Of a DNA stretch of 41,280 bases, positions 1 through 17,353 are shown in pieces (position 1 is the first letter of the stretch; each line of letters opens with the position of its first letter). The notes below the pieces were generated by a model. That model worked only from the letters and a program-made list of their open reading frames with translations. It was not told where the DNA came from and ran no database searches. The translations under genes and the position numbers were made by a program. The stretch is from a virus (taxonomy: Duplodnaviria > Heunggongvirae > Uroviricota > Caudoviricetes), in the IMG/VR virus record IMGVR_UViG_2718218131_000003, positions 1 through 41,280 of that record; one strand, 5' to 3'.

Positions 1-1131
1 TCAAATGACCAGTTTTTTCCACTCCTTACCGCGTGCATCGTTGTAAATATCGGTCATTTTTTGATTCGAATGACCCAGCAAAATTTTAGTATCAATTCCC
101 TGTTCTCTGAACAATCTTTCTGATAAAGATCTTTGCTCATGGAAAGAGGGGGGGGTGCCATTAGCACGCCAGTTGTAATCCACAGAATCCCGGGCTTTTT
201 TAAATGCAACTGTTAACGTTGCTGGTTTAACCATCCCGCCGCGCTTACCCATCCCCTTAGCGTGATGATGGTGCAATAACCACGGACTAAGGATGTAATC
301 ACGACAGGATGACACCACGTCACCCAGGGTCAGATTTAATTTGTCGCAACGCAGAGCCAGAGGAATGGCTATCCGGGCTCCTGTTTTTTGCTGTTCGACA
401 TGAAGATAACCATCCCGGATATCCGAAAATTGCATTTTGCAAATATCTGAAAGGCGCTGGCCTGTCATCAGTGCCAGCAGCATGCCGCGCTGTAAAAAGT
501 AACCATCCTTTTCCGCTGCGTTATAAATCATCGTCCACTCATCAAAAGTCAGTCGCTGTCTTGATATCCGCACCTGCGGTTTTTTTGCCGATTCTGCAGG
601 GTTAAAGCCTGGCGGGACATCGCCCGTTTGCTGAGCTTCCCGGAAAACATCGATCAGTACCTTCCTGAAAATTTGTCCCATTCTGTTATGTCCTCTGGCC
701 TTGTACTCTTCCAGCACCGATACCACATCTTTTACGGTTATGGTATCTAACGGTCTGGTGCCAAAACGTTCACCAAATACCTTGAGAGGGGCCGCTTTTT
801 GTTTCAGCGTGTTGAGTTTGATCTCTCCGTTCTCATATCTTTCCTGTTGAATTTTTCTGTAATTATTCAGAAAAATGGAAACGGTTGATGAACCTCCGGT
901 ATCACTAATAATCTTCTCCTGCAGACTGAGCATTTGCTCCATTTGTTGTCTGGCAAGACGGCTGTTCGCTTCTGCTGCAATGGTTTCCGCCAGTTTCTGG
1001 TCAATACTGCCGAGTCCATGATTTTTACCTGTGATGGGATGCCTGTAACGCCAGTAAACTTTGTTATTTCTTTTGTCAAAATACGGAGATAAACCCGGAA
1101 CATCGGTTTTATATTTTCGCGGGCGCGCCAT
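1..1131 (-). CDS. int: tyrosine integrase (lambda Int family)
   Basis: 376-aa ORF; C-terminal catalytic region with conserved His and Tyr (LLGHSNQKMTDIY); lies next to xis at the prophage end; stop codon at window positions 1-3. Confidence 0.9.
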   Translation of the reverse strand: MARPRKYKTDVPGLSPYFDKRNNKVYWRYRHPITGKNHGLGSIDQKLAETIAAEANSRLARQQMEQMLSLQEKIISDTGGSSTVSIFLNNYRKIQQERYENGEIKLNTLKQKAAPLKVFGERFGTRPLDTITVKDVVSVLEEYKARGHNRMGQIFRKVLIDVFREAQQTGDVPPGFNPAESAKKPQVRISRQRLTFDEWTMIYNAAEKDGYFLQRGMLLALMTGQRLSDICKMQFSDIRDGYLHVEQQKTGARIAIPLALRCDKLNLTLGDVVSSCRDYILSPWLLHHHHAKGMGKRGGMVKPATLTVAFKKARDSVDYNWRANGTPPSFHEQRSLSERLFREQGIDTKILLGHSNQKMTDIYNDARGKEWKKLVI

Positions 1132-1357
1132 CTTCCAGTATCCTCTTCAAAGCAGGGTGATCTGTGGCGATCACCTCCGGCTTGTTTACCATTCCTACAA
1201 AGCGAGCGTGTGGATCCACTCGCCAGTGTCTCCCAACTTTTTTGGGGAGAGGAAATATCATTCCGGCTTTAGCGTATTTACTTAACGTACCCGGAGTAGG
1301 GATCGGTTCACTGAATTCCTCTTTTGCCCACTCAGTGAGCAGAATAAGTCTTGCCAT
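1109..1357 (-). CDS. xis: excisionase-like protein
   Basis: 82-aa ORF immediately upstream of int and overlapping its start; Xis-like pattern of W/R/P residues (LTEWAKE...IFPLPKKVGRHWRV). Confidence 0.7.
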   Translation of the reverse strand: MARLILLTEWAKEEFSEPIPTPGTLSKYAKAGMIFPLPKKVGRHWRVDPHARFVGMVNKPEVIATDHPALKRILEDGAPAKI

Positions 1358-1421
1358 GAGCGTCGTTCGCTAATCATGGTCGCCGCCACTATAGCTGGTG
1401 GGCGACGACCGGGGTTGAACA

Positions 1422-3797
1422 TTAAAAATCAGCCTGACTCGGGATCAGTTTTTGTATCGTAGCTGTAACGTATTTTGCCTGGTGACGGGCGTCATCCAGT
1501 GCATTGTGGCGCACGCCTTCGAATGGAATAACGGTTCTGGCATCAAAGTCGATTGTTTTTCCCAGCTCAACGATTGTGCGTACATCGCGATCGTTGTGGT
1601 AGCGCCACGGGCAGGGGATGTCCAGACGTTCGTATGAGGTGCGCAAAATTGCGTTATCGAAAGTCGCACCATTACCCCATACCTGAACGAATTTTTCATC
1701 TGAATATTCGTTGATGAACTTCCGAAACTGCGAAAGGGCATCCTTCAGTTTTACCTGGTCTGTTAAAATGGCAGCTCTGGCTTCACTGGACTGCTTCAGC
1801 CACCATTCGATGGTTCCACCGTCAGGAACAGCCCCTGTATTCATTGCGTCAGTCAGACTGATAACGATATAAAATACTGGCCCGATTTCCCCTGTTTGTG
1901 GGTCGAAGAAAACCGCACCAATAACCACGATGGGCGCATTGGTGTTGGTTCCCATTGTTTCAAGGTCGATCATCAGGTGATACCACACTCTGCTGGTGGA
2001 TGTGATAACGTGATGACCGTTCACCGTAATTAAGGGATCCGCCGTCTCGCCAGTTTCACTATCGCTGGCGTGGTCCTGAGCGCTGCCAGCATTCTCCTTG
2101 TGTGGATGTTCAGCGCCTTCCATTTCCTTCGGATCATTTTCCTGAACTTCAACCTGATTCTCTTCATCGAATGTTTCCTGGTATGTTGCGTCGCCCATCA
2201 CCGCGCCACAATCAGGGCAGTTGCCGCCGCCCGTCTGACCGCAGGCGGTGCAGATTTTTTCCGCTTCCTGTTGCGCTACTGGCTCAGGCTGTTTCGTTTC
2301 TGGCTCGTTTTGTAACCCCTTCACCCATTTCGGATCATTCGGGTCGCTAATCCCCTCAACAAATTCTCCGCGAGAGGCAGCAAGCAACTTATCGGCGTCA
2401 GGCTGGCTGATATTGGCTGCCTGCATAATTTTGTTTACTTCGTCAGCGGTAACTTTTACCTGATAAACCGGATCTATCTGTGCTTGAGTATCCAGCGATT
2501 GCGTGCCCTGCCGATGTTCAGTTGTATCCGGTTCCATTGTTTCAGCCGTTGCCTGCTCACCTGCCATTGCGTCAGACGGTTGTGATTTTTCCTCATTATT
2601 TTTTTCTTCTTCTGTTTCGTGTTCAGCAGCCAGTTCGCGGTTAACTTCTTCCAGAATATCTTTTTCCGGTGTATGTCGTGCAGCAGCGAGAGTTTCCTCG
2701 GAAGGGTTCTCGTGATCAGTCTCTGTTAAATTGGCGTTGATATACCCCTGAAGACGTCCCGGGTAATGATAAAACTCAGGGTGTGCGCTCCGGATAAGTG
2801 CAAAAATAGCGGCGCGGGAATAATCCAGGATACCCGGGATTGCGCGAAGTGCTGCGGACCATTCTTTGAACGGACTTTCTTTCTTCCGGACGATTTCTTT
2901 TGCGCGACGATAAACGCTGCCCGGAATTTCATAAATATTAAAATCCATCGGAAGTGTGGCCGCTGCAATCTCCACATCCAGCGTATCGAAGGTGTGTACT
3001 AAATTCGGATTGCGATCGGTTTTGTTCCCTCCACCGGCATTAGCACCGGAAGCCGTGCGGGTGATGCGTGAAACACGATTCCCTTTCATCCACTCTTTTG
3101 TCAGCAGACCGCGATCGGTGTAGTCAGCGCCCAGGTATGCTTCGAAAAAAGCAGTCATTAGCCCCAGGTCTGAATTACCAGGATTAGGGAAAACTTTGTC
3201 AGTATCACGCACCAGTTTATGGAGATCGCGAATTTCCAGTGGTTCGAGTTGCGCTGCTTTATTTGAGATGGCCAGCGCGGTAACAGCGGGAAGTTTTTCA
3301 TCCTGTGCGTTATGTAATGCGCGCAGTTCGTCCCGCGAAACGTGCGTTACTGGTTTTTCGCTGTTGTGTTGCGCCAGCCATCGAACAGGCAGAATCTGAC
3401 CTGAAACTGGCAGGAGCATATTCTCCTCAATCTCAGTCATGTCTTCACCGTTGACGTTGGTATTGTCAGTGCTGGCTGGTTTGTCCTGAACAGAGGGCAC
3501 GATAAGTACCATTGTGATACCATCTTCCCCGCCTTTTTCGTATCGGTTGCAGAATTCGGTATCAAACACGCCTTCCGGAGGAAGGTCATTCACAACGGGT
3601 AAATGGACGCGAACAGGTTTTTTAAAATCCTCTTCGTCAAATCCTGCATCGTCCATTGCGACAACACCGCGTGATATTGCAACCGATAATTTTTTTGCTG
3701 TGCGCCAGTAAAAACCGCCTTTAATCCCAAGACGTTTTCTGACTTTGTCATTTTTGGCTTCGTAATATAGTGCAATTTCTTCTTTATCAGTGCTCAT
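1422..3797 (-). CDS. phage exonuclease with C-terminal DEDDh (DnaQ-like) 3'-5' exonuclease domain
   Basis: 791-aa ORF; C-terminal motifs IDLETMG (Exo I) and HNALDDA (Exo III); long acidic low-complexity linker; N-terminal domain of unknown function. Confidence 0.75.
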
Positions 3798-3874: not shown

Positions 3875-4078
3875 TTACGGTGCTGTTTTAAGTCCCGCCG
3901 GGATTTCGTTATTGTCCATGTGAATAACTTTATCAACCGGATAACAGTTACCGGGAATTTTCTGTTCTGCTGCGGCAGCCATGCATTCTTTCATGGAACC
4001 GTAAATGTCAATAACCAGGTCAACAGGCTCGCCCGTATTAAGAAAAACTGTCAGAGTGAGAGCAACAGCAGTATTCAT
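3875..4078 (-). CDS. ydfD: YdfD-like small protein
   Basis: 67-aa product (MNTAVALTLTVFLNTGEPVD...KIPGNCYPVDKVIH) matches my memory of Qin prophage YdfD; start chosen at the internal Met that forms an ATGA overlap with the dicB stop. Confidence 0.7.
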   Translation of the reverse strand: MNTAVALTLTVFLNTGEPVDLVIDIYGSMKECMAAAAEQKIPGNCYPVDKVIHMDNNEIPAGLKTAP

Positions 4079-4263
4079 TGCCAGTATCCTTTTTGCATCA
4101 GGCGTAAACGGGCCAGCATTGAAACAATGCATATTTGATTTAATAGCTCCCGTTCGTGTTTTCTCTTATTAATGGCATCTTCAGTAAATACAGGGTTGCT
4201 GATTTTGACACCAATTTCAAAACAACCTTCAGACGTATTAACGTTTGGTAATAACGTTTCCAT
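4075..4263 (-). CDS. dicB: cell division inhibitor DicB
   Basis: 62-aa product METLLPNVNTSEGCFEIGVKISNPVFTEDAINKRKHERELLNQICIVSMLARLRLMQKGYWQ, near-identical to DicB as recalled; start taken at internal Met of the longer ORF 4075..4368. Confidence 0.8.
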   Translation of the reverse strand: METLLPNVNTSEGCFEIGVKISNPVFTEDAINKRKHERELLNQICIVSMLARLRLMQKGYWQ

Positions 4264-4432: not shown

Positions 4433-4490
4433 AAAAAGGGCGGCAGAGCAGTCACGGAGTAAAACTGATACCGCCAAACGTCACCAGAAA
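4433..4490 (-). ncRNA. dicF: DicF small RNA (ftsZ-targeting sRNA)
   Basis: Reverse complement of 4438..4490 reads TTTCTGGTGACGTTTGGCGGTATCAGTTTTACTCCGTGACTGCTCTGCCGCCC, followed by a T-tract (intrinsic terminator hairpin GGCGG...CCGCC); matches DicF as recalled; sits between the ydfA-side genes and dicB as in the dicB operon. Confidence 0.8.
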
Positions 4491-5523: not shown

Positions 5524-5931
5524 TTACTGATGTTTGTTACGTTTGCGAGCTTCTAGTAGCTCGGTGAATAGGCGATTAAAATTCTCAACGCGGGCACGGA
5601 GTTCGCTGATTTGTGCTTGCTGCTCTGATTTTGGAAGTGCGCGATACAATCGCAACATCTCCAACTCATCTTCCGATAAGTCTAAGGCGCTGTTGAGTGC
5701 AACTGGTGGATCTGGTGTTTTATCCTCGTCACCAAACAGTATCCAAGTTGGTGAACATTGCAATACCTCAGCCAGGCGATGCAAATTTTGCCCGCGCGGG
5801 GCTGTATGGTCGCTTTCCCATAGTGAAATTGATGAGCCAGATACGCCAGCGGCTTTGCTTAAATCGTTTTGACTTAAACCAACCTGTTTGCGTCTTTCTC
5901 TAATTCGTTGACCTAAAGTTTTCTCGTTCAT
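5524..5931 (-). CDS. dicA: DicA-like HTH (XRE family) prophage repressor
   Basis: 135-aa ORF with N-terminal HTH (LSQNDLSKAAGVSGSSISLWE) and the block LQCSPTWILFGDEDK shared with DicA as recalled; divergent from a Cro-like gene. Confidence 0.85.
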   Translation of the reverse strand: MNEKTLGQRIRERRKQVGLSQNDLSKAAGVSGSSISLWESDHTAPRGQNLHRLAEVLQCSPTWILFGDEDKTPDPPVALNSALDLSEDELEMLRLYRALPKSEQQAQISELRARVENFNRLFTELLEARKRNKHQ

Positions 5932-5952: not shown

Positions 5953-5995
5953 TTGACTTGAGATTCCTTGAGTGATTACTATTGAGAAAACTCAA
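5953..5995 (+). promoter_or_regulatory. putative rightward promoter and operator for dicC
   Basis: TTGACT (5953..5958), 18-nt spacer, TACTAT (5977..5982), then 14-bp palindrome TTGAGAAAACTCAA (5982..5995) just upstream of a GGAGG RBS and the dicC ATG at 6009. Confidence 0.45.
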
Positions 5996-6008
5996 CTTTG
6001 GAGGGGTG

Positions 6009-6236
6009 ATGTTTAAATCAGACGTAATTAATTTTTATGGGACGAAAGCCAAAGTAGCGAAAGCTGCTGGTGTTGATCCATCTGCTGTTTCTCAATGGGG
6101 GGAACTGGTTCCTGAAGGTCGCGCGATGCGCCTGCAAGAGGCATCCGGCGGGGAACTTCAGTACGACCCCAAAGTTTATGACGAATATCGTAAGGCAAAG
6201 CGGGCGGGGCGGTTGAACAATGAAAATCACCCCTGA
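6009..6236 (+). CDS. dicC: DicC-like (Cro-like) regulator
   Basis: 75-aa product from the ATG at 6009 with a GGAGG RBS 5 nt upstream; small basic HTH-type protein divergent from the repressor; resembles DicC as recalled. Confidence 0.7.
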   Translation: MFKSDVINFYGTKAKVAKAAGVDPSAVSQWGELVPEGRAMRLQEASGGELQYDPKVYDEYRKAKRAGRLNNENHP

Positions 6237-6771
6237 ACAGGTTTGTGAGGCTCTGGATGCCTGGGTATGTCGACCAGGAATGACACAGGAGCAGGCGACG
6301 ATATTAATCACGGAAGCATTCTGGGCTCTGAAAGAACGCCCGAACATCGATGTTCAACGCGTCACGTTTAATGATGGCGAGGTTGATCAACGGGCGCTGG
6401 GCGTTAACCGGGTGAAGATATTCGAACGCTGGAAAGCTATCGACACCAGGGATAAGCGGGAAAAATTCACGGCGCTGATTCCGGCAATTATGGAGGCTAT
6501 CCGGATCAGCGATTTCAGGTTGTATTGTGAAATTACTGACGGAAAAAGCATTACGTACATGATCGCCGGGTTAAACAAAGAATATGGCGATGTGGTGGAG
6601 TCCGGGCTGCTTTTTGCGGATCCATCTGTTGTGGAACGTGAGACTGACGAGCTTATAGAAAAAGCTATTGCTTTCAAGCATGCGTATCGTCAGCAATATC
6701 AATATTACTTTGCAGATAAACAAATGTCTGCCAGGGGTTCGTATGAGTATCGATGCACTACGATGGGCTAA
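6220..6771 (+). CDS. hypothetical regulatory protein (CII-like/YdaT-family, tentative)
   Basis: 183-aa ORF immediately after the Cro-like gene and overlapping it by 17 nt; position equivalent to cII/ydaT; no motif I can verify. Confidence 0.4.
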   Translation: MKITPEQVCEALDAWVCRPGMTQEQATILITEAFWALKERPNIDVQRVTFNDGEVDQRALGVNRVKIFERWKAIDTRDKREKFTALIPAIMEAIRISDFRLYCEITDGKSITYMIAGLNKEYGDVVESGLLFADPSVVERETDELIEKAIAFKHAYRQQYQYYFADKQMSARGSYEYRCTTMG

Positions 6772-7783
6772 AAAGGTGAAAACCGGCAGTTCATCCAGTA
6801 AGTCTGTATTGACCTGGCTTGCTGATATGTGCGGTGCCGATTTGTGTGCATACCCGTCTGTATCTGCACTGGCAGAAGTAACGGAACTGAACAAAAAGAC
6901 TGTGCAGGACAGCTTACGACACCTGATGGAGATTGGGTTAATTGTTGATACCGGTGAGAGAAAAGGCAGAACAAAGCAAATTGTGGTGTACCGACTTATC
7001 GGTGTAGAAGAAAGTGTTGCCGAGCCTGAATACACCCAAAAACGGGAGTCTTTAAAGGTGGGTAAAATTGGTGCTGTTAATAAAAACAGTACCGAAAATG
7101 GTTATGTTTCAGCACAAAACAGACCCAAAAACGGAACTCTTAGCTGCATGGAAAATAACCAAAGACACCCAAATTTTCCATCAAAGACACCCAAAAACGG
7201 ATCACGGAACCCAAAGGAACCCAAAGATCTAAACCCCACACATAACGCACGCGAGAGTGCTCCGACCAGTGAGCAGGAAGTTTTATCGTTACAGGCAGCA
7301 CCCCTTGTATTCCTGGATGGCCTGAGCGAACCCATCGGAAAATTTCCGATGACCGATAGCTGGTATCCGTCACGGGATTTTCGACGACGGGCTGCGTTGT
7401 GGGGGATGGCTTTGCCGGAGACAGAATTTACACCTGCTGAACTTGCCGCCTTCCGGGACTACTGGGCAGCGGAGGGGAAAGTGTTTACGCAGATTCAGTG
7501 GGAGCAGAAATTCGCCCGTCACGTAAATCACGTCAGGGCGCAGGTTAAACCAGTCAGCAAGGGGGGGAGCCATGCAGCAGCACCAGGTGGCACCGCATCA
7601 CGGGCAGTTCAGGAAATTCGGGCAGCACGTGAGCAGTGGGAACGTGAAAACGGATTTATCAGCGACGGAAACGGCGTGGAAGCTGTGGGAACTCATGGGG
7701 GATGTTTATTCGAACCGCTGGACCCAGAAGAACGGGGTCGCACCTTCGAAGCTCTGGATTGCACAGATTGGCGCGATGACTGA
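6743..7783 (+). CDS. replication initiation protein (O-like, N-terminal HTH); 3' end uncertain
   Basis: ATG at 6743 (MSIDALRWAKK...); N-terminal winged-helix region typical of phage replication initiators; C-terminal ~70 codons overlap the P-like ORF in another frame (see finding). Confidence 0.55.
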   Translation: MSIDALRWAKKVKTGSSSSKSVLTWLADMCGADLCAYPSVSALAEVTELNKKTVQDSLRHLMEIGLIVDTGERKGRTKQIVVYRLIGVEESVAEPEYTQKRESLKVGKIGAVNKNSTENGYVSAQNRPKNGTLSCMENNQRHPNFPSKTPKNGSRNPKEPKDLNPTHNARESAPTSEQEVLSLQAAPLVFLDGLSEPIGKFPMTDSWYPSRDFRRRAALWGMALPETEFTPAELAAFRDYWAAEGKVFTQIQWEQKFARHVNHVRAQVKPVSKGGSHAAAPGGTASRAVQEIRAAREQWERENGFISDGNGVEAVGTHGGCLFEPLDPEERGRTFEALDCTDWRDD

Positions 7784-8237
7784 GCAGCAAATCCGACAGG
7801 TCTGCCGCCAGTGCATGGACCGCTGCCGGGCGGGTGAAACATGGCCTCCTGACCTGGCTGAGTTTGTGGCGTTGATTTCAGAAAGTGGAGCCAATCCATT
7901 CGGTCTGACGGTAGATGCCGTGATGGAAGAGTACCGCCGCTGGCGCAACGAGTCCTGGCGATACGACGGGAGCGATAAATACCCGTGGTCTCAGCCTGTA
8001 CTGTATCACATTTGCCTCGAAATGCGGGCAAAAGGGATTGAGCGCCAGATGACCGATGGGGAGTTAAAACGGCTTGCAGAACGGCAACTGACGAAATGGA
8101 CAAAGCATGTTGGTATGGGCCTGAGTGTTCCGCCTGTCCGGCGACAACTGGTTGCACCTAAACGCCCGTCGGGACCAACGCCAATTGAGTTGCTGAAACA
8201 GGAATATGAACGCCGGAAAGCGGCTGGGTTTGTTTGA
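7572..8237 (+). CDS. replication protein P-like (helicase loader); 5' end uncertain
   Basis: C-terminal two thirds follow lambda P layout (PPDLAEFVALI...YPWSQPVLYHICLEMRAKG...TDGELKRLAERQL); alternative in-frame ATG at 7695. Confidence 0.65.
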   Translation: MQQHQVAPHHGQFRKFGQHVSSGNVKTDLSATETAWKLWELMGDVYSNRWTQKNGVAPSKLWIAQIGAMTEQQIRQVCRQCMDRCRAGETWPPDLAEFVALISESGANPFGLTVDAVMEEYRRWRNESWRYDGSDKYPWSQPVLYHICLEMRAKGIERQMTDGELKRLAERQLTKWTKHVGMGLSVPPVRRQLVAPKRPSGPTPIELLKQEYERRKAAGFV

Positions 8238-8269: not shown

Positions 8270-9040
8270 ATGGAGACTGTTTTTGACGCACTGAAAGCGA
8301 TGGGAAAAGCCACGTCGGTAGAGCTGGCTGCGCGACTTGATATCAGTCGTGAAGAAGTGCTGAACGAGCTGTGGGAACTGAAAAAGGCTGGCTTTGTTGA
8401 TAAAAGCGTATACACCTGGCGTGTGGCTGGCGAAGGTGAATCCGGGGTAACCGAAGAGCAGTCAGCACAATCTGAAGCACAGGATGTGCTAACCAGGGAG
8501 GTCGAACAAAAAGTTACCGCTGACATGATGATTGAGTTTATCGGTCAGGAGGGGGCTAAAACGTGTGAGGAGCTGGCGGGTAAGTTCGGTGTCAGCACTC
8601 GCAAGGTTGCTTCCACGCTGGCGGTAGTAACCGCAACGGGGCGGCTGGCACGCGTAAACCTGAACGGTAAATTTCGCTACTGCATGCCGGGCGAGAATTT
8701 ACCAGTAAAGCCGAAAGTCGCATCGGTAACGGAAAATGATGGTAAAGCCTTTCCTCAGCCAGCAGGTGTTGCGTTACCAGTACAGGAAGTTGCAACACAG
8801 GAAGATATTAAAACAGAAACTGTGGCTGATATTGTGCAATCGTTGCCATCGTTTACTGAAGCGCGAGCGGATGACTTGGTTTTACCATCGCTGCATATGG
8901 CAAACCGCGAATTGCGGCGGGCGAAAAATCATGTTCAGAAGTGGGAGCGAGTCTGCGCCGCGCTGCGGGAGCTGAACAAGCACCGGGATATTGTTCGACA
9001 GATTACTGATTCTTCCCGCCGTATTGTATCGGAAAAGTGA
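8270..9040 (+). CDS. hypothetical protein with two winged-helix-like repeats
   Basis: 256-aa ORF; two similar N-terminal segments ([28 protein letters not shown] and [28 protein letters not shown]). Confidence 0.55.
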
Positions 9041-9055
9041 TTGTCGGAGGCGCTT

Positions 9056-9478
9056 ATGGCAAAAGTATTTACACAAGAAGAGCGGGAAAAAATTAAATGG
9101 CAGGTGGTGGAACTCGTGCGCCAGAGCGGCCGTGAGACGTTACGGCAACTGGAAGCTAAAACAGGTGCGACTAGATATCTGATGAGCGTTCTTGCCAGAG
9201 AGCTGGTAGCCAGTGGCGATGTATACAACTCCGGCTACGGGTTATTCCCCTCTGAACAGGCGCGTAAGGACTGGCAAAACGCCCGCAAAAAACTCTCGAG
9301 GGCAAAGGTGAAGAAACCTGCTGTGGTTGATCCGGACCTTATCTGGTCATCACCTGACGGAGAAATACGTCGCTACGACAGCCGCCTAAACATAATCTGT
9401 CGCGAGTGCCGGAAAAGCAAGGTTATGCAGCGTGTGCTGGCGTTTTATCAGGGTAATTTTCAGGAGGTGATGGCGTGA
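9056..9478 (+). CDS. hypothetical protein
   Basis: 140-aa ORF from the ATG at 9056 preceded by GGAGG (9046..9050); first gene of a chain of translationally coupled ORFs. Confidence 0.5.
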   Translation: MAKVFTQEEREKIKWQVVELVRQSGRETLRQLEAKTGATRYLMSVLARELVASGDVYNSGYGLFPSEQARKDWQNARKKLSRAKVKKPAVVDPDLIWSSPDGEIRRYDSRLNIICRECRKSKVMQRVLAFYQGNFQEVMA

Positions 9479-9780
9479 GGGTGAGGGTTTATATCGCTGG
9501 TCCGATGACCGGGTATAAAAATTTCAACCGTGAGGCGTTCCACAATGCGGAAGAGGAACTGAAACGGGAAGGGCATACAGTCTTAAACCCGGCAGTGCTT
9601 CCGGACGGGCTCACACAGCCACACTATATGGATATTTGCATGGCAATGATTCGTTGTGTGGATGCGATTTACATGCTGAAAGGCTGGCAGCGGTCAGCAG
9701 GTGCTAAGGCAGAACTGGCGCTGGCGGAGAAACTGGGGCATGCGGTTATTTTCCAGGAGACAACCAGTGAGCGAAATTAA
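9475..9780 (+). CDS. DUF4406-like protein (nucleoside 2-deoxyribosyltransferase-like fold)
   Basis: 101-aa product beginning MRVRVYIAGPMTGYKNFNREAF, the N-terminal signature I associate with DUF4406; start overlaps the upstream stop. Confidence 0.55.
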   Translation: MRVRVYIAGPMTGYKNFNREAFHNAEEELKREGHTVLNPAVLPDGLTQPHYMDICMAMIRCVDAIYMLKGWQRSAGAKAELALAEKLGHAVIFQETTSERN

Positions 9781-10096
9781 TTACCAGGCACTGCGTGAGG
9801 CAGCAGAAGCAATAAAAGTCGTGGCAACGCCGCAAAAATTGCTTGCGTTTCGTATGAAAGTCACACCGCAGGTTGTGCTGGTGCTGCTGGATGAACTAGA
9901 AGCTAAAAACAAACGCATTACAGAACTGGAAGCGAGGGAAGTTCAATTACCGACTCGCTACGACCTTCGATATGGGCACCCAATAAATGCTGATAAGCGA
10001 CATGTCATGATACCTAAAGAAAATGGCAGTTGGCTTTGCCTGATTGACTTAGAACACGCACTACGCGTCGCTGGCATTCGCATCAAAGGAGAGTGA
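9767..10096 (+). CDS. hypothetical protein
   Basis: GTG start at 9767 overlapping the upstream stop; ~109 aa; coiled-coil-like stretch KNKRITELEAREVQL. Confidence 0.45.
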   Translation: MSEINYQALREAAEAIKVVATPQKLLAFRMKVTPQVVLVLLDELEAKNKRITELEAREVQLPTRYDLRYGHPINADKRHVMIPKENGSWLCLIDLEHALRVAGIRIKGE

Positions 10097-10097
10097 T

Positions 10098-10613
10098 ATG
10101 GCGTTAACACACCGCGAACTCTGTCAGATTGCGTACAAGTTCCTTAAGCGCAACGGGTTCAAGGTTTGCTTTCATGACCGCTTTATAGCTGTAACCAGTA
10201 CCGGAGAACAGCCAGATGCTATGGGATTCAGAAATTCAGCATCATGCCTGATAGAGGTGAAGTGTTCTCGTGCTGATTTGTTGGCAGATAGAAAAAAGCG
10301 TTTCCGTAAAAATCCCTCTCTTGGCATGGGCGACTGGCGATTCTTTATTAGTGAGCCGGGAATTATTTCAGTTGAGGATTTACCTCCTGGCTGGGGATTA
10401 CTTCACGTTGTTAACGGAAGAGTACGGAAAGTACATGGATGGCCCAGGGGTAATTGCTGTTGGGGTAATCCTGACGATAAGCCATTTACCGGGAATAAGC
10501 AGGTTGAATGCGATTACATGTTATCTGCATTAAGGCGCATGGAGTTGAGAGGGCACCTTAATGAAATATATGACGGTGTGATTGTTAATAAGAAAGAAGG
10601 AAACGCGGCATGA
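10098..10613 (+). CDS. putative PD-(D/E)xK-fold nuclease-like protein
   Basis: 171-aa ORF with GEQPDAMGF ... CLIEVKCSRADL, i.e. a PD ... ExK arrangement at the spacing seen in restriction-endonuclease-like folds; inference only. Confidence 0.45.
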   Translation: MALTHRELCQIAYKFLKRNGFKVCFHDRFIAVTSTGEQPDAMGFRNSASCLIEVKCSRADLLADRKKRFRKNPSLGMGDWRFFISEPGIISVEDLPPGWGLLHVVNGRVRKVHGWPRGNCCWGNPDDKPFTGNKQVECDYMLSALRRMELRGHLNEIYDGVIVNKKEGNAA

Positions 10614-11347
10614 TCACTATTACCAAAGATCGACTGCTGACAATCAAGCAGTGGCGCGAAATATACGGACCTGGTAGCAACGTTGTACTGCCAGCAGAAG
10701 AAGCGGAAGAACTGGCACGAATTGCTCTGGCATCGCTGGAAGCAAAACCAATAGGTGCTTTCCACATTGCAGAACAGCGAGTTGACGGCACAAGTGACTA
10801 CCTCAAGGATGGAGAATGGCCTATTGATAATGGAATTATTGAGGTCTACGCCGCCTCACCGATGACGGTAGTGCTGAACGATGTATCTGGACCTCTTGCT
10901 CTTGCTTACAAAGAGCTTACACCTGCGATTATGCGCAACCATATCGCTGTATTCGAACGATACGGAATAACCCCAAACGATAGCATCACTACAATTCATG
11001 CGCTTCGAATTGCGCTGGATGGCATAGAGCGGAGCGACGCCATGCTTCATGCCGGAAACTTTAGGGAAAACGCGAATTCGTCAACCAATAATTTTCGGGA
11101 AATTACGGAAACGTCAACCAACTCTCTGGTAACTCCGGATGGTTGGATAAGCTGTAGTGAGCGAATGCCGGATGATGGTCAGCACGTAATTATTTTATGT
11201 GATGGCGCATTCGTTCTTTATGCGCAATATCGAGACGGTGAGTTTTTTGATGTAGTCCGTGATGGTGATGAATTTTTCGAAACACAGAGCCGCAATGTAA
11301 CCGACTGGATGCCGCTACCAGAACCGCCGCAGGAGGTGCGCCAATGA
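10610..11347 (+). CDS. hypothetical protein with C-terminal DUF551-like domain
   Basis: 245-aa ORF; C-terminal segment DGWISCSERMPDDGQHVIILCDG...WMPLPEPP resembles the DUF551 phage domain. Confidence 0.5.
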   Translation: MITITKDRLLTIKQWREIYGPGSNVVLPAEEAEELARIALASLEAKPIGAFHIAEQRVDGTSDYLKDGEWPIDNGIIEVYAASPMTVVLNDVSGPLALAYKELTPAIMRNHIAVFERYGITPNDSITTIHALRIALDGIERSDAMLHAGNFRENANSSTNNFREITETSTNSLVTPDGWISCSERMPDDGQHVIILCDGAFVLYAQYRDGEFFDVVRDGDEFFETQSRNVTDWMPLPEPPQEVRQ

Positions 11348-11427
11348 ACTGGCCTGAAGCATTTGCAATTACAGGCGTTGCTATGGCTATCGCTTTTTTA
11401 GTATATGTTATTTGTCGGTGGGGGTAA
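11344..11427 (+). CDS. small hydrophobic peptide (27 aa)
   Basis: ATG at 11344 overlaps the upstream stop (ATGA); product MNWPEAFAITGVAMAIAFLVYVICRWG has a single predicted TM helix; not in the ORF track (under 60 aa). Confidence 0.35.
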   Translation: MNWPEAFAITGVAMAIAFLVYVICRWG

Positions 11428-11462
11428 AAACGTTCGCCGGGATTAACACCAAAGGAGGGAAT

Positions 11463-11567
11463 ATGTCGGATGATATATCACTGGCAATGGAAGGTGCGCT
11501 GGCTGTTGTTGCTGTTGTGGGCGTTTACTGCCTGGTTGTGTTTTTGATGGATCGACTAGGGAACTGA
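11463..11567 (+). CDS. small hydrophobic peptide (34 aa)
   Basis: ATG at 11463 preceded by AAGGAGGG (11452..11459); product MSDDISLAMEGALAVVAVVGVYCLVVFLMDRLGN has one predicted TM helix. Confidence 0.4.
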   Translation: MSDDISLAMEGALAVVAVVGVYCLVVFLMDRLGN

Positions 11568-11813
11568 ATTCATTACGATATGGGAATTCCCATATCGGGT
11601 AAAAACGGTTTGCGGGAAAAGGAGAGTTAAGTAGAATTGCTGCGGGTGCTTGAGGCTATCTGTCTCAGGCATGAACACCAAAAGGCAGATAGAGAAAAGC
11701 CCCAGTTAACATTACGCGTCCTGCAAGACGCTTAACATTAATCTGAGGCCCAATCTATGTCTCACAAATGTAGGTTAGCCTCTTACGTGCCGAAAGGCAA
11801 GGAGAAGCAGGCT

Positions 11814-11969
11814 ATGAAGCAGCAAAAGGCGATGTTAATCGCCCTGATCGTCATCTGTTTAACCGTCATAGTGACGGCACTGGTAACGAGGAAAGACCTC
11901 TGCGAGGTACGAATCCGAACCGGCCAGACGGAGGTTGCTGTCTTCACAGCTTACGAACCTGAGGAGTAA
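11814..11969 (+). CDS. hokD: Hok/Gef-family type I toxin (HokD/RelF-like)
   Basis: 51-aa product MKQQKAMLIALIVICLTVIVTALVTRKDLCEVRIRTGQTEVAVFTAYEPEE matches HokD (RelF) as recalled; AAGGAGAAG RBS upstream; the in-frame upstream extension from 11757 may be a mok-like leader. Confidence 0.85.
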   Translation: MKQQKAMLIALIVICLTVIVTALVTRKDLCEVRIRTGQTEVAVFTAYEPEE

Positions 11970-12038
11970 GAGACCTGGCGGGGGAGAAATCCCTCGCCAC
12001 CTCTGATGTGTCAGGCATCCTCAACGCACCCGCACTTA

Positions 12039-12070
12039 ACCCGCTTCGGCGGGTTTTTGTTTTTATTTTC
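12039..12070 (+). terminator. intrinsic terminator downstream of hok
   Basis: Hairpin CCCGC-TTCG-GCGGG (12040..12053) followed by TTTTTGTTTTTATTTT. Confidence 0.65.
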
Positions 12071-12186
12071 AACGCGTTTGAAGTTTTAGATGGTGCCGGA
12101 ATAGAATCAAAAATACTTAAGTAGCGCGCAGGGAGAAGAGGGATGGACCCCGAACAGGGGAGTGCTATTTATCTGGAAGGATTCTG

Positions 12187-12450
12187 TTGATGAAAATCGA
12201 AGAATTACGTGAAATTTTTAGTGAAGATGGCCTCTATACTGTGCGCGTTGAGAATGGTGCTATTGTCAGCCACTGCCGTATTAAATGTTTACAGTCTCAA
12301 CAAAGGAAGAGTGGAGCTGCGTTAATTCATTTTGTGGATGGGCTTGTGACGGATGGTTTTATTTTGCGTGCAAATGAATTTGTCACATCGTTGCCGTCTC
12401 TGAAAGAAGCTGGGATTAAGGCTGGTTTTTCTGCTTTTGAAGATGAGTGA
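12187..12450 (+). CDS. hypothetical protein
   Basis: 87-aa ORF between hok and the DUF968 gene; no recognisable domain. Confidence 0.45.
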   Translation: MMKIEELREIFSEDGLYTVRVENGAIVSHCRIKCLQSQQRKSGAALIHFVDGLVTDGFILRANEFVTSLPSLKEAGIKAGFSAFEDE

Positions 12451-12516
12451 ATTCATCTACAATTCAGCGCAGGGCTGAACCCCTGTTGAGTAACGCTGTG
12501 CCACCGGAGAAAGCCG

Positions 12517-12795
12517 ATGGCGCAAAATTCCAGACTACACAATTCTGATAATTCAGCCGTCTTTGCCAGCGGGCACGGGCGGCGTTCTCACGCATTCAAA
12601 TATGACTGGTATCAGCACGATCCCTGCACTGAAGAACAGGCCGAATGGCTGATTCATAACTACCGCAGACGTGGATATGAGTTTAAGAAAGCCCTTAGCC
12701 TCGACTACCGTCACTGGATAATCTACGTCAGGCTCCCTTATTCCGAACGCCCGCCGCGTCCATCCCGCACATACCAGCAACGGATCTGGAGGTAA
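12517..12795 (+). CDS. hypothetical protein
   Basis: 92-aa ORF; basic C-terminus; stop directly precedes the DUF968 gene start. Confidence 0.45.
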   Translation: MAQNSRLHNSDNSAVFASGHGRRSHAFKYDWYQHDPCTEEQAEWLIHNYRRRGYEFKKALSLDYRHWIIYVRLPYSERPPRPSRTYQQRIWR

Positions 12796-12796
12796 C

Positions 12797-13855
12797 GTGC
12801 GGGTATTACTTCGACCTGTTCCGGTGCCGGAACTCGGGCTGGTGGTCCTTAAGCCGGGCCGTGAATCCATGCAGGTATTTCATAATCCCCGGGTACTGGT
12901 GGAGCCGGAACCGAAAAGCATGCGTAATCTGCCGTCCGGGGTCGTTCCTGCCGTTCGCCAGCCGCTGGCGGAGGATAAATCATTACTGCCATTTTTCAGC
13001 GACGAACGAGTGATTCGTGCTGCTGGTGGCGCTGGCGCACTGTCTGACTGGCTCCTGCGTCATGTCAAATCCTGCCAGTGGCCTCATGGTGACTACCATC
13101 ACAGTGAAACCGTCATACATCGTTATGGTACCGGCGCAATGGTGTTGTGCTGGCACTGCGACAACCAGCTGCGCGACCAGACCTCCGAATCACTCGGGCA
13201 ACTTGCTCACCAAAACCTGTCTGCATGGATGATTGACGTCATACGCCATGCAATGAATGGCTCGCAGGAACGGGAATTATCGCTGGCTGAATTATCCTGG
13301 TGGGCGGTCCGCAATCAGGTGGCGGACGCGCTACCGGAAGCGGTATTACGTCGTTCGCTGGGGTTGCGTGCGGAAAAAATCCGCTCAATGTACCGTGAAA
13401 GCGACATCGTACCGGGAGAGCAGACCGCCACCAGCATACTGAAGCAGCGCACAAAAAATATTGCTCCGTTGCCTCACGCCCACCAGCAACAGAATCCACC
13501 ACAGGAAAAGACGGTGGTCAGCATTGCCGTTGATCCGGAGTCACCGGCTCAGTATCTCCAGCGCCAGAAACCACAACGGGAAGATATGCCTGTATACACG
13601 CGTTGGGTAAAAACGCAGAAATGCATGACGTGTGGCAATCAGGCAGATGATCCGCATCACATCATTGGTCATGGACTGGGAGGGATGGGAACAAAGGCTG
13701 ATGATTTGTTTGTTATTCCGCTGTGCCGTAAATGCCATAGCGAACTACACGCCGGGGTAAAAGATTTTGAAGAAAAACACGGCAGCCAGCTGTTGTTGCT
13801 GATTCGTTTTTTAATGCACGCGAGAAATTCGGGTGTCCTGAAGTGGAAAGCATGA
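12797..13855 (+). CDS. DUF968-family protein (YdfU-like) with C-terminal HNH-like Cys/His motif
   Basis: GTG start at 12797 with GGAGG RBS (12787..12791); 352 aa; C-terminal CMTCGNQADDPHHIIGHG...CRKCHSELH motif; lies immediately upstream of rusA as ydfU-type genes do. Confidence 0.6.
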   Translation: MRVLLRPVPVPELGLVVLKPGRESMQVFHNPRVLVEPEPKSMRNLPSGVVPAVRQPLAEDKSLLPFFSDERVIRAAGGAGALSDWLLRHVKSCQWPHGDYHHSETVIHRYGTGAMVLCWHCDNQLRDQTSESLGQLAHQNLSAWMIDVIRHAMNGSQERELSLAELSWWAVRNQVADALPEAVLRRSLGLRAEKIRSMYRESDIVPGEQTATSILKQRTKNIAPLPHAHQQQNPPQEKTVVSIAVDPESPAQYLQRQKPQREDMPVYTRWVKTQKCMTCGNQADDPHHIIGHGLGGMGTKADDLFVIPLCRKCHSELHAGVKDFEEKHGSQLLLLIRFLMHARNSGVLKWKA

Positions 13856-14221
13856 ATGACTGAACGCATAGAATTTGTTTTGCCTTACCCGCCAACGGTG
13901 AACACTTACTGGCGACGTCGTGGCAGCACATATTTTGTATCAAAAGCCGGTGAGCGTTATCGCCGTGATGTGGCGCTTATTGTTCGCCAGCAGCGGCTGA
14001 AATTAAACCTGTCCGGAAGGCTGGCGATAAAGATTATTGCAGAGCCACCGGATAAGCGTCGTCGTGACCTGGACAATATCCTGAAAGCACCACTGGATGC
14101 GCTGACGCATGCCGGACTTCTCATAGACGACGAGCAGTTTGATGAAATCAATATTGTGCGCGGTCAGCTCGTTCCTGGGGGGCGGCTGGGCGTGAAGATT
14201 TACAAAATTGAGAGTGAGTGA
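13856..14221 (+). CDS. rusA: Holliday junction resolvase RusA
   Basis: 121-aa product with RusA blocks (LPYPPTVNTYWRRRG...PDKRRRDLDNILKAPLDALTHAGLLIDDEQ) aligning to RusA as recalled. Confidence 0.85.
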   Translation: MTERIEFVLPYPPTVNTYWRRRGSTYFVSKAGERYRRDVALIVRQQRLKLNLSGRLAIKIIAEPPDKRRRDLDNILKAPLDALTHAGLLIDDEQFDEINIVRGQLVPGGRLGVKIYKIESE

Positions 14222-14772
14222 TCGTAAATATGATATATCCGGAAATTACAGGCAAAAGCGGCGAGCATTTACGTCTAAAAACGCTGGAAGCCGTCTGGAT
14301 CCAGGGGAAATTACGGATGTGGGGGCGTTGGTCGTATATAGGTGGTGGCAAACCAGGAAATATGTTCAATCAGTTGCTGACATCCAAAAAACTGACAAAA
14401 ACCGCGATCAATGAAGCCCTGCGTAGAATCAGGGAGTCAGGGATTGATAAACCAGAGCTGGAAGCATTCTTGCGAGAGATGATCGCTGGCAGACAGAAGA
14501 GCTGGTTGTCTCACTGTACTGATGCAGAGGCGTTACGCATTGATGGGGTGATAAGTAAAGCGCTTGCACGTTATCCTGGATTGATTGATATCCTGCGGCA
14601 AAGGTACGAAGGGCGGGGGATGAGTAAACGCAAAATGGCTGAATTGTTGAATGAGGTTCACCCTGAGTGGTGCTATGCAACATGCCGCAATCGTATAGAT
14701 ATGTGGCTGAGAATAGCTGAGTTTATTCTGTATCCACTGATGCGAGATGCATTTTCTTTTACTGACGCTTAG
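14218..14772 (+). CDS. late-gene antiterminator (Q-like), assigned mainly by position
   Basis: 184-aa ORF overlapping the rusA stop; followed by an intrinsic terminator and then the late region, the classic Q / late promoter / tR-prime arrangement; sequence-level assignment not verified. Confidence 0.5.
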   Translation: MIVNMIYPEITGKSGEHLRLKTLEAVWIQGKLRMWGRWSYIGGGKPGNMFNQLLTSKKLTKTAINEALRRIRESGIDKPELEAFLREMIAGRQKSWLSHCTDAEALRIDGVISKALARYPGLIDILRQRYEGRGMSKRKMAELLNEVHPEWCYATCRNRIDMWLRIAEFILYPLMRDAFSFTDA

Positions 14773-14939
14773 AATCTGGAGGGCGTTTGTTGTTGCACGA
14801 AGAGGATTTTTGGCTGGTAGTAAGGTTTGTGCAGTTTTAGAAAAAAAGCTTGTATTTTTAGCCATAAACTGTTTCAATCCAGCTACGCTTCGCAAAGCTG
14901 TACCGCGAGGCGAATAGCAGACATGGACACCTGAAAGAA

Positions 14940-14961
14940 CCCGCTTTATGCGGGTTTTTTT
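14940..14961 (+). terminator. intrinsic terminator (tR-prime-like) downstream of the Q-like gene
   Basis: Hairpin CCCGC-TTTAT-GCGGG followed by TTTTTTT (14955..14961). Confidence 0.65.
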
Positions 14962-15102
14962 ATGCCTGAAAAACGGCACAGAACATTAAACGCGCTGGTT
15001 GTTGTGAATACTGGTCTTTCAGCTTGCTGGCTTTTTCGACAAGAGGTATTGGTATGTCACGTTAACCGGAAAAGGGAAAAAGGCATACTAAAACAGCAGG
15101 AT

Positions 15103-15282
15103 ATGACCGAAACCGCCAGAGTGGTGTTTAATGAATTAAGCGTCACCGAACCGGCGACCGTCGGGGAAATTGCGCAGAATACTGACCTTTCACGCGAACG
15201 CTGCCAGTTAATACTGACTCAGCTTGTTATGGCGGGTCTGGCAGATTATCAGTTCGGTTGTTACAGACGCCTTCCGCAGTGA
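15103..15282 (+). CDS. possible small HTH protein (weak)
   Basis: 59-aa product from the internal ATG at 15103 (MTETARVVFNELSVTEPATVGEIAQNTDLSRERCQLILTQLVMAGL...); RBS spacing is poor; the ORF-track start at 14962 lies inside the terminator T-tract. Confidence 0.25.
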   Translation: MTETARVVFNELSVTEPATVGEIAQNTDLSRERCQLILTQLVMAGLADYQFGCYRRLPQ

Positions 15283-15432
15283 AGGCTTTTTAATTTGTGG
15301 TAATGGGCGGCTGGTGGGTGTTAGCGGCACCTGCCAGCCATCTGCTCATGCGTTGGGGTCACAAGCAAACCTCAGGCCCATCTGCTTTGCGCAAAAGCGG
15401 TATGAGCCTATCAGAGAAGTGCTTATTGATCT

Positions 15433-16481
15433 ATGGCTAATACTGTAAAAATATCCAGTTGTGAGTTAATCAACGCTGATTGCCTGGAATTTATCCAGAC
15501 CTTACCGGAAAATTCTGTCGATCTGATAGTCACAGACCCGCCATACTTTAAAGTGAAGCCCGAGGGCTGGGATAACCAGTGGAAGGGCGACGATGATTAC
15601 CTGAAATGGCTGGATCAGTGTCTGGCGCAATTCTGGCGGGTACTGAAACCTGCCGGAAGTCTCTACCTGTTCTGTGGTCATCGCCTGGCATCTGACACCG
15701 AAATCATGATGCGTGAGCGCTTTAATGTGCTGAACCACATTATCTGGGCGAAGCCGTCCGGACGCTGGAACGGGTGCAATAAGGAAAGTCTGCGGGCGTA
15801 TTTTCCGGCAACAGAGCGCATTCTGTTTGCAGAACATTATCAGGGACCGTATCGCCCGAAAGATGATGGCTATGTGGAGCAGGGGCGCGAGCTAAAACAG
15901 CACGTCATGGCCCCGCTGATTTCTTACTTTCGTGATGCGCGTAAATCACTGGGAATAACGTCAAAACAGATAGCGGAAGCCACCGGAAAGAAAAACATGG
16001 CTTCGCACTGGTTTGGTATCAGTCAGTGGCAGTTACCGAACGAGGGTGATTACAACAAATTGCAGGCGTTGTTTGCGCGTGTTGCGGCAGAAAAACATCA
16101 GCGCGGGGAACTGGAAAAGCCACACCACCAGCTGGTCAGCACATACAGTGAGCTGAACCGGCAGTATACGGAACTGCTGAGTGAATATAAAAATTTGCGG
16201 CGGTATTTCGGTGTGACGGCGCAGGTTCCGTACACCGATGTCTGGACGCATAAACCGGTGCAGTACTATCCAGGGAAACATCCGTGCGAAAAACCGGCAG
16301 AAATGCTGCAGCAGATAATCAACGCGAGCAGTCGTCCGGGAGACCTGGTTGCAGATTTTTTATGGGTTCAGGTTCAACGGTAAAAGCGGCGATGGCACTG
16401 GGGCGTTGTGCGATTGGTGTTGAGCTGGAGACCGGACGCTTTGAACAGACAGTCAGGGAAGTTCAGGATTTAATCGTTTGA
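15433..16481 (+). pseudogene. DNA N6-adenine methyltransferase (DPPY motif), split by a frameshift at a T6 tract
   Basis: ORF 15433..16383 carries DPPY (motif IV) and ends ...DLVADFLWVQVQR; ORF 16284..16481 in another frame carries FFMGSGSTVKAAMALG (motif I, FxGxG). Frames meet at TTTTTT 16356..16361; one additional T would give a continuous ~349-aa enzyme. Confidence 0.75.
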
Positions 16482-16530
16482 AACGGATGAGATTGCAGAA
16501 TTAATTACGCACCATTATTATTCTGCTCCC

Positions 16531-16606
16531 GGCCCTTTAGCTCAGTGGTGAGAGCGAGCGACTCATAATCGCCAGGTCGCTGGTTCAAATCCAGCAAGGG
16601 CCACCA
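16531..16606 (+). tRNA. tRNA with CAU anticodon, ileX-like (tRNA-Ile2, lysidine type) or Met
   Basis: 76 nt, acceptor stem GGCCCTT/AAGGGCC, anticodon loop CTCATAA, GTTCAAATC T-loop, 3' CCA; closely resembles E. coli ileX as recalled. Confidence 0.8.
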
Positions 16607-16607
16607 A

Positions 16608-16684
16608 CCGCCACTAGCTCATCAGGAAAGAGCGTCAACCCTTTAAGTTGAGTGTGCGAGGTTCGAGTCCCCGGTGGCGGTCCA
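16608..16684 (+). tRNA. tRNA, atypical; anticodon loop CCTTTAA (UUU/Lys if canonical), isotype uncertain
   Basis: 77 nt; acceptor CCGCCAC/GTGGCGG, D-stem GCTC/GAGC, anticodon stem TCAAC/GTTGA, T-loop TTCGAGT, 3' CCA; position 33 is C rather than the near-universal U and C1-G72 starts the acceptor stem. Confidence 0.5.
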
Positions 16685-16686
16685 GT

Positions 16687-16762
<76 letters not shown>

Positions 16763-16765
16763 TAT

Positions 16766-16840
<75 letters not shown>

Positions 16841-17048
16841 GTTAGAGTCTTTCGGTCTGCGATGATGGGAAATCCCGGAGTGACTGAAAGACGTTTAGGT
16901 TATGAATGATCGCCTTTTTTTTGCAAAATTGCTGTGCAGAAATACCAACCTTCGGGCAGGCGATCATTCATAAGCACTCTGCTTTTATTCCGATTAACTG
17001 TGGGTGGTTTGTTGGATAGAGTGCTTTCCTGACTGTAGATCCAATTTC

Positions 17049-17349: not shown

Positions 17350-17353
17350 TTCA

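Follow-up and report, generated by a model that had tools for sequence, protein, structure and literature searches.

A RecE-type N-terminal module joined to a predicted 3'-5' DEDDh exonuclease in a Chi-rich lambdoid prophage

The DNA analysed here, which we call the window, is a stretch of 41,280 nucleotides (nt) from a tailed phage of the Caudoviricetes (IMG/VR record IMGVR_UViG_2718218131_000003, positions 1 to 41,280). Its leftward operon holds a large exonuclease gene that an earlier note, made from the sequence without database searches, had singled out. The open reading frame (ORF) listing of the window confirms that gene as 791 amino acids (aa) long, at 1422..3797 on the minus strand, with an ATG start. 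The product is a three-part protein: a RecE-type N-terminal module (N-module) of about 375 aa, an acidic tether of about 225 aa and an intact DEDDh exonuclease domain. By all the matches presented below it reads as a chimera of RecE in which only the nuclease domain has been exchanged, the 5'-3' nuclease of the PD-(D/E)XK type giving way to one of the DEDDh type. The parts of the gene are these:

1422..3797, minus strand: coding sequence of the 791-aa RecE N-module and DEDDh exonuclease fusion, from the ORF listing and the Pfam, PHROG and NCBIfam matches; stop codon 1422-1424
2673..3797, minus strand: N-module, aa 1-375, the folded RecE-type N-terminal region, from PF06630, identity to RecE and AlphaFold2
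1995..2672, minus strand: acidic linker, aa 376-601, predicted to be disordered, from its charge, the per-residue model confidence (pLDDT) and RecE homology
2208..2252, minus strand: CxxC...CxxC motif resembling a zinc ribbon (C516, C519, C527, C530), within the linker, from sequence
1425..1994, minus strand: predicted DEDDh (DnaQ-H, Rv2179c/DexA-like) 3'-5' exonuclease domain, aa 602-791, from PF16473, the DexA alignment and Foldseek

The sequence family itself has already been catalogued, as a Pfam architecture, as PHROGs 607, 2082 and 20376, and under NCBI names. The protein collection contains an exact 791-aa match to the window exonuclease, and E. coli proteins nearly identical to it carry the name '3'-5' exoribonuclease' or 'exonuclease'. 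What is new here is the recognition that the RecE N-module is joined to a nuclease of opposite polarity, a confident model of that module, the link between the type of nuclease and RecT, and the association with Chi-rich prophages that lack a recombination (Rec) module.

The RecE-type module, the linker and the DEDDh domain

The earlier note called the N-terminal part an uncharacterised domain. It does have known relatives, being the N-terminal region of RecE. Pfam family PF06630 (Exonuc_VIII) matches aa 56-187 (E 1.5e-26). The NCBIfam RecE equivalog model NF007259 aligns aa 1-591 to its positions 1-603 of 877, at 870.5 bits and so below its equivalog cut-off of 1269. BLASTP finds 57% identity to K-12 RecE between aa 58-590 of the window protein and aa 50-591 of RecE, and the alignment ends at aa 590. 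K-12 RecE itself is made of PF06630 and the PD-(D/E)XK nuclease family PF12684 (from aa 615; E 4.1e-28), and Pfam gives no PF12684 (DUF3799) match in the window protein. The exchange point is just upstream of where that RecE domain starts. The two proteins therefore have the N-terminal 590 aa in common, including the acidic linker and the CxxC...CxxC motif, as well as the same leftward early operon position near xis and int. They differ in what follows: RecE of the Rac prophage has a 5'-3' double-stranded DNA exonuclease (aa ~600-866) and a recT gene, whereas the window protein has the DEDDh 3'-5' type and no recT downstream.

It is worth stressing that the N-terminal two thirds of RecE have been described as 'of unknown function' since the 1980s and were still so described in 2023 (PMC11611040). 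An AlphaFold2 model of aa 1-400, built with 69 diverse homologues, reaches a mean pLDDT of 92.9 and a predicted template-modelling score (pTM) of 0.66. Foldseek finds no significant match for the N-module model in the PDB (best E 1.8, TM-score at most 0.19) or in BFVD, a set of predicted viral structures (best E 0.45), and a sequence-profile search of the PDB gives no match either. Since a confident model matches no fold in the PDB or BFVD, the N-module is, as modelled, a folded unit unlike the known annealase or single-stranded DNA (ssDNA)-binding folds. The earlier note had asked whether this region might prove to be such a fold, and the searches give no sign of it. We rejected a Rad52/RecT/Erf, RecA-like or OB fold for lack of any structure or profile match. 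A Walker-A reading of a conserved Gly-rich loop in the module was rejected as well, its Lys being a Leu in K-12 RecE.

The long acidic linker of the earlier note is borne out. Over residues 361-600 there are 55 Asp and Glu against 16 Lys and Arg, a net charge of -39, and most of aa 376-601 falls below pLDDT 50 in the full-length AlphaFold2 model. That model has a confident N-module (aa 1-375) and a confident DEDDh domain (aa 602-785, pLDDT ~80-90) with no fixed orientation between them (pTM 0.32). The window linker is homologous to that of K-12 RecE as far as aa 590 by BLASTP, and across the N-module family the linker differs in sequence and length from genus to genus. The CxxC...CxxC motif, a putative metal-binding site, is kept in K-12 RecE and is confined to Escherichia-type proteins. 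Because it is not present in the aligned homologues from Citrobacter, Enterobacter, Kosakonia and others, it appears not to be essential to the family. A second short motif, (D/N)VQMEE, or EEMEG in Escherichia, is near-invariant inside the otherwise variable disordered linker. It falls at 2118-2132 of the window (aa 556-560, 'PKEME'), about 45 aa before the DEDDh domain, and occurs in 12 of 15 DEDDh representatives versus 3 of 21 PD-(D/E)XK representatives. It looks like a short linear binding motif and we regard it as a candidate for one.

The DnaQ-like exonuclease that the earlier note placed at the C-terminus is clearly there. The match to PF16473 (Rv2179c-like DEDDh 3'-5' exonuclease) spans aa 607-779 at E 4.9e-68 and 228.7 bits, against a cut-off of 27, and covers model positions 2-175 of 177. 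The whole catalytic pentad is present (D611, E613, D714, H764 and D769, aligned with D7, E9, D119, H186 and D191 of T4 DexA), with the H-x4-D arrangement of the DEDDh type. Across 33 fusion homologues these positions are invariant or at least 90% conserved. T4 DexA (exonuclease A; PDB 8KEL/8KEN) is the only solved relative found by a sequence search of the PDB, and Foldseek also ranks DexA first (8KEL, E 1e-8, TM-score 0.67-0.73), followed by REXO2/Orn and RNase T. The domain is thus modelled as intact, with an RNase H-like exonuclease fold, and is a predicted 3'-5' exonuclease. It shares the DEDDh fold and the pentad with DexA at 28% identity, and with free-standing Rv2179c-like exonucleases of P22-like and lambdoid phages (g341c gp29, 1720a-02) at 55-62% identity. 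All of those are stand-alone enzymes of 180-230 aa, whereas the window domain is tethered to a RecE N-module.

Gene neighbourhood, distribution and selection

We compared the neighbourhoods of 52 loci from species-representative genomes (GTDB). Of the 15 loci with a full-length DEDDh fusion, int was detected in 9, ~300 bp downstream, and an excisionase-type Pfam match was seen in 2. The 142 same-strand ORFs within 7 kb upstream of these 15 fusions match 27 Pfam families, and the 25 most frequent of these include no annealase, Gam, Abc2 or ssDNA-binding protein (SSB). For the RecBCD inhibitors Gam and Abc2, phmmer gave no match either. The PD-(D/E)XK fusions have a RecT-family gene directly after them in 9 of the 9 loci tested and in 5 Rac-like loci besides. 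The loci examined therefore divide strictly, in an observation derived here: PD-(D/E)XK with RecT, DEDDh without an annealase.

The N-module also exists without a nuclease. Such a protein (682 aa) is encoded directly upstream of Gam-Bet-Exo in the Shigella phage POCJ13, which carries Shiga toxin (Stx) genes (L004, 4001-7810), and another (474 aa) directly upstream of Gam and an AAA_24 (Sak4-like) gene in two further loci (L009/L010, 7001-11088); both recombination modules are complete and unrelated. The N-module thus accompanies recombination genes in three contexts: with RecT as part of RecE, ahead of Gam-Bet-Exo, and ahead of Gam and the Sak4-like gene. In Salmonella phage g341c a homologue of the DEDDh domain stands free, within the erf-ssb-exo-abc2 module.

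Both building blocks have been recorded before. Zheng et al. 2025 (Zheng, Casjens, Davidson, Amundsen and Smith; Genome Res; PMC12315714) report a nuclease-free 'RecE-2' and DnaQ-like 3'-5' nucleases, some of them near int, in lambdoid early-left operons, and they count some DnaQ-type nucleases as Rec-module members. In contrast to what we present, their main text does not describe the two blocks fused, and both were set aside from the Rec-module analysis.

The leftward operon of the window follows the same pattern. Its layout is Qin-like, as in dicA-ydfABC-dicF-dicB-ydfD-ydfE of K-12, and its annotated features are:

1..1131, minus strand: lambda-type integrase (PF09003, PF00589)
1109..1357, minus strand: excisionase (xis), the next gene downstream of the exonuclease, leaving no room for recT (PF07825, phrog_629)
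3875..4132 (likely start 4078), minus strand: YdfD-like DUF1482 gene, directly upstream of the exonuclease gene (PF07358; order as K-12 Qin ydfD)
4075..4263, minus strand: dicB, cell-division inhibitor (PF05358, NF049927)
4438..4489, minus strand: DicF small RNA (sRNA), placed as in Qin, with dicB on one side and the upstream small ORFs on the other (Rfam RF00039, 76.7 bits; gathering score 48)
5524..5931, minus strand: DicA-like helix-turn-helix repressor, at the head of the operon (PF01381)

An unknown 128-aa ORF and a DUF1391 (ydfA-like) gene belong to it as well, and xis begins 64 nt past the stop codon of the exonuclease gene. The earlier note saw a single protein between xis and the dicB-type genes. 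The exonuclease is indeed the only nuclease there, in the place taken by recE-recT in Rac and by exo-bet-gam in lambda, but it is not the only gene, since the small ydfD-like gene also stands between it and dicB. The note's further claim, that no Bet-, Gam- or RecT-like gene is present in this operon, agrees with the Pfam-scanned early ORFs of the window, which give no match to Bet, RecT, Erf, Rad52-like proteins, AAA_24/Sak4, SSB, Gam or Abc2. A promoter scan finds a sole promoter-like site on the exonuclease strand, at 5439-5411 just downstream of the repressor gene, and nothing above chance closer to the exonuclease. Because the gene is distal in a repressor-controlled operon and has no promoter-like site of its own, it is probably expressed only on derepression and silent in lysogens.

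The DEDDh fusion is common in E. coli. DNA of the DEDDh domain is present in 4164 of 5426 complete E. coli genomes (77%), in up to 8 copies per genome, and DNA of the RecE-type nuclease in 1742 complete E. coli genomes. The PF06630 plus PF16473 architecture tops the search for homologues of the N-region, in which at least 8000 clusters were scored, and the 120 matches listed from that search, almost all of them E. coli proteins, share 91-100% identity with the query. The N-module family as a whole is small, with 268 clusters at 50% identity among 1.84 billion proteins. Among the best 150 N-module representatives, those of at least 450 aa end in a PD-(D/E)XK nuclease (21), a DEDDh domain (15), no nuclease that Pfam recognises (~42) or a RecT fusion (2). 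A species-level genome scan finds the N-module solely in Enterobacteriaceae, apart from two metagenome-assembled genomes (MAGs) that are probably mislabelled. One, a Veillonella parvula MAG (L008), has an 88%-identical DEDDh fusion and dicB; the other, a 'Proteobacteria bacterium' MAG (L011), has a Rac-like kilR-racC-recE-recT order. Both contigs carry E. coli-type prophage regions and are probably binning contaminants.

Intact orthologues of 700-848 aa occur in Citrobacter, Enterobacter, Kosakonia, Phytobacter, Dryocola and Buttiauxella, and the catalytic pentad is kept across genera at ~40% identity. The O157:H7 copy is 68% identical, has the same int-xis-exo-ydfD-dicB context and adjoins ompW. 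Measured against the O157 orthologue, the ratio of nonsynonymous to synonymous substitution rates (dN/dS) is 0.28 for the N-module, 0.40 for the linker and 0.17 for the DEDDh domain, and all three parts are under purifying selection. The gene is also carried by the complete genome of phage Tritos. We did not use the record 'Escherichia phage vB_EcoS-813R8' as evidence from a free phage, as it is a prophage region with flanking host genes.

The copy in K-12 itself is broken. It is the Qin pseudogene ydfE, cut by IS2E after codon 256 (L060, 4079-4999). YdfE has the same operon position as the intact window gene (dicB-ydfD-ydfE-int) but a different N-terminal variant: its sequence matches aa 1-256 of the 823-aa protein P0132 at 99% identity, and P0132 goes on to the same linker and a DEDDh domain at its end. 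BLASTP finds no similarity between the first ~260 aa of this variant and aa 1-260 of the window protein. We therefore rejected ydfE as a direct homologue of that stretch, and since its start is a different variant, the front of the N-module is itself mosaic. The destruction of the K-12 copy by IS2 may explain why this class of protein went unstudied.

Chi sites and the possible role of the exonuclease

The window has 12 Chi sites versus 1.84 +- 1.25 expected, about six times chance, and 100 shuffles never gave as many. The strand that carries the terminase, head and tail genes has eight of them (plus strand: 1394, 1992, 12838, 13022, 15310, 18142, 19917, 24842) and the other strand has four (minus strand: 13428, 13480, 16125, 18579). 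Six lie in the last ~6 kb ahead of the terminase genes (12838-18579). Most are oriented to be active for RecBCD entry from the lysis-side cos end. In phage Tritos the corresponding split is 9 versus 2. Around the gene, the active strand has 4.26 Chi sites per 10 kb in the 15 DEDDh loci and 1.55 in 27 PD-(D/E)XK/RecT loci, figures that are uncorrected for shared ancestry and in which some flanks may include host DNA.

Zheng et al. define a 'no Rec module, high Chi' class among lambdoid phages, having 8 or more active Chi sites and no more than 6 inactive ones, and growth of the tested member, phage LLS, was aided by RecBCD (PMC12315714). With 8 active and 4 inactive Chi sites and no Rec-module genes found, the window prophage falls in this class. 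Because it is Chi-rich like these published phages without a Rec module, our analysis points to reliance on host RecBCD and RecA. This bears on the main claim of the earlier note, that the exonuclease stands in place of a canonical recombination module. The position agrees with that claim, but functional replacement does not follow, as the richness in Chi points instead to the host enzymes, to which the exonuclease would then be an accessory at most.

Two of the Chi sites on the same strand bracket the DEDDh cassette:

1992..1999, plus strand: Chi site GCTGGTGG at the junction of linker and DEDDh domain (~codons 600-602), kept in O157 TW14359, strain tcmA_3 and phage Tritos (L062, at 27079)
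1394..1401, plus strand: Chi site ~20 nt downstream of the stop codon, in a hairpin-forming stretch between the exonuclease gene and xis, kept in loci L001 and L002

Similar pairs are found in L001 (4983 and 4394) and L002 (3992 and 3394), and the bracketing sites persist in homologues even though their DEDDh domains share only ~72% protein identity. No Chi site occurs in Rac recE. The pair may have promoted exchange of the cassette, or may simply be part of the general Chi enrichment.

The explanation we favour, tentatively, is that the exonuclease is a 3'-end-trimming accessory to host RecBCD-Chi-RecA recombination-dependent replication and not a self-sufficient system of the Red or RecET type. 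RecBCD needs blunt or nearly blunt ends. Once the leftward operon is induced and the gene expressed, the N-module would bring the exonuclease tethered to it to recombination intermediates or to the ends of phage DNA, and the DEDDh domain would remove 3' single-stranded tails or non-homologous 3' ends, leaving ends acceptable to RecBCD. Alternatively the trimmed 3' ends could prime DNA synthesis after strand invasion, much as DexA, whose 3'-5' activity is mentioned in PMC12153337 as contributing to double-strand-break repair during T4 intron homing.

There are several points against this explanation. PMC12315714 cites Lovett 2011 for the point that 3'-5' exonucleases acting on ssDNA destroy the invading 3' end and so usually inhibit homologous recombination. 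The same paper does not count DnaQ-type genes near int as Rec-module members, and it indicates that not all Rec-less phages have the exonuclease gene, so a phage can follow the RecBCD/Chi strategy without it. The comparison of Chi densities carries the limits given with it, and we infer a role of the N-module in recombination from gene neighbourhood only. The substrate could be RNA, the Pfam family being named for an exoribonuclease. The literature searched yielded no functional study of this protein or of any DEDDh fusion, and a search on Rv2179c/PF16473 yielded nothing on prophages.

A broader form of the idea is possible but doubtful: that the RecE N-region is a portable docking module with an unseen fold, which takes to the ends of phage DNA a nuclease of one polarity or the other, or no nuclease at all. 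The DEDDh form would then be a third, unrecognised recombination strategy, a tethered 3'-end trimmer that feeds Chi-studded DNA to RecBCD-RecA without an annealase or RecBCD inhibitor of its own. If this were true, most E. coli genomes would hold an unstudied recombination factor, one that K-12 genetics missed because the Qin copy ydfE was destroyed by IS2.

Two other roles have arguments in their favour, though we think both unlikely. In the first the protein is a prophage-encoded defence nuclease that destroys superinfecting phage DNA, such as that of T-even phages containing 5-hydroxymethylcytosine (5hmC), and spares host DNA. EcD (HAK9828821.1), a free-standing E. coli homologue of DexA reported in 2025, breaks down T4 DNA in vitro and gives cells protection against T4 (PMC12153337). 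DexA is the closest solved structure to our domain, and a gene this prevalent in prophages would suit defence. Yet the 5hmC-recognition residues W152 and D169 of DexA are H734 and T748 in the window protein, the Trp being retained in the alignment solely by free-standing phage homologues, and we rejected membership in the HREX/EcD group on this ground. D90, which forms the DexA tetramer, is Ala in EcD, and its loss is said to make EcD safe for the host (PMC12153337); the window protein retains it as D686 (with K683 for S87), in an alignment that at 28% identity is moderately reliable. The fusion to a RecE module, the probable silence of the gene in lysogens and the lack of a PADLOC match speak against defence as well, and so does the standalone g341c homologue, which sits in a recombination module and not in a defence island.

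The second role, about as unlikely, is counter-defence or host takeover during lytic growth, with the nuclease degrading immune nucleic acids (retron multicopy single-stranded DNA or reverse-transcriptase cDNA), nanoRNAs and other oligonucleotides, or specific RNAs. The name of the Pfam family, taken from a mycobacterial 3'-5' exoribonuclease, fits this, as do the structural neighbours after DexA, which are oligoribonucleases (REXO2, Orn) and RNase T. The operon is shared with an sRNA and host-manipulating genes (dicF, dicB), and the title of a 2020 preprint, 'Phage proteins block and trigger retron toxin/antitoxin systems', suggests that nucleases at this operon position can meet host defence nucleic acids. 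Against this, sequence and structure agree in giving a DNA exonuclease as the closest relative, and the consistent partnership of the N-module with recombination genes is left unexplained.

That the protein is a complete recombination system of reversed polarity, we consider quite unlikely. On this reading 3'-5' resection would fall to the DEDDh domain, and annealing or ssDNA binding to the N-module or linker, in place of Exo/Bet or RecE/RecT. The protein does occupy the Rec-module position as the sole gene there for DNA transactions. Full-length RecE, moreover, enhances linear-linear recombination where the nuclease domain alone does not, which suggests that the N-region contributes to recombination; but the same review records that this region is dispensable in RecE and that RecT is still required (PMC11611040). 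The N-module resembles none of the annealing or DNA-binding folds considered above. PD-(D/E)XK fusions always keep RecT and nuclease-free N-modules stand beside complete Red or Sak4 modules, so the N-module does not seem to replace an annealase. The 5' tails that such resection leaves are poor substrates for RecA-type invasion.

A decaying RecE remnant without current function is very improbable, even though many such prophages are cryptic and the copies in Qin (a pseudogene) and tcmA_3 (split) are broken, given the intact reading frame, the conserved pentad, dN/dS of 0.17-0.40 and the presence of the gene in a complete phage genome.

Whichever role is right, the RecE N-region is a separate module under selection, and 77% of complete E. 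coli genomes, those of O157:H7 with their multiple lambdoid prophages among them, use it again with a nuclease of the opposite polarity. The function of the N-region bears on how temperate phages without a Rec module, some Stx-converting phages among them, replicate and recombine, on why full-length RecE improves linear-linear recombineering, and on whether DEDDh exonucleases of prophages serve recombination or phage defence. We believe the split between PD-(D/E)XK with RecT and DEDDh without it offers a simple experimental handle on these questions.

The rightward early region

The remaining early genes of the window run rightward. ORFs at 5982-8237 were read as translations only and are named from the annotation of their O157 homologue (cro, YdaT, DnaT-like, P-like). 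Those at 8270-16383 match, by Pfam, DUF1627, DUF977, DUF4406, Ead/Ea22, DUF551, DUF968/HNH, RusA, Q and a methylase. At 11644-11819 on the plus strand the sok antitoxin RNA family matches strongly (120 bits against a gathering score of 59), which implies a putative hok/sok-type toxin-antitoxin locus in this region. Finally, a cluster of four tRNA genes (Met-CAT, Lys-TTT, Thr-TGT and Gly-TCC) lies at 16531-16840 on the plus strand, between the DNA methylase gene (15433-16383) and the lysis genes.

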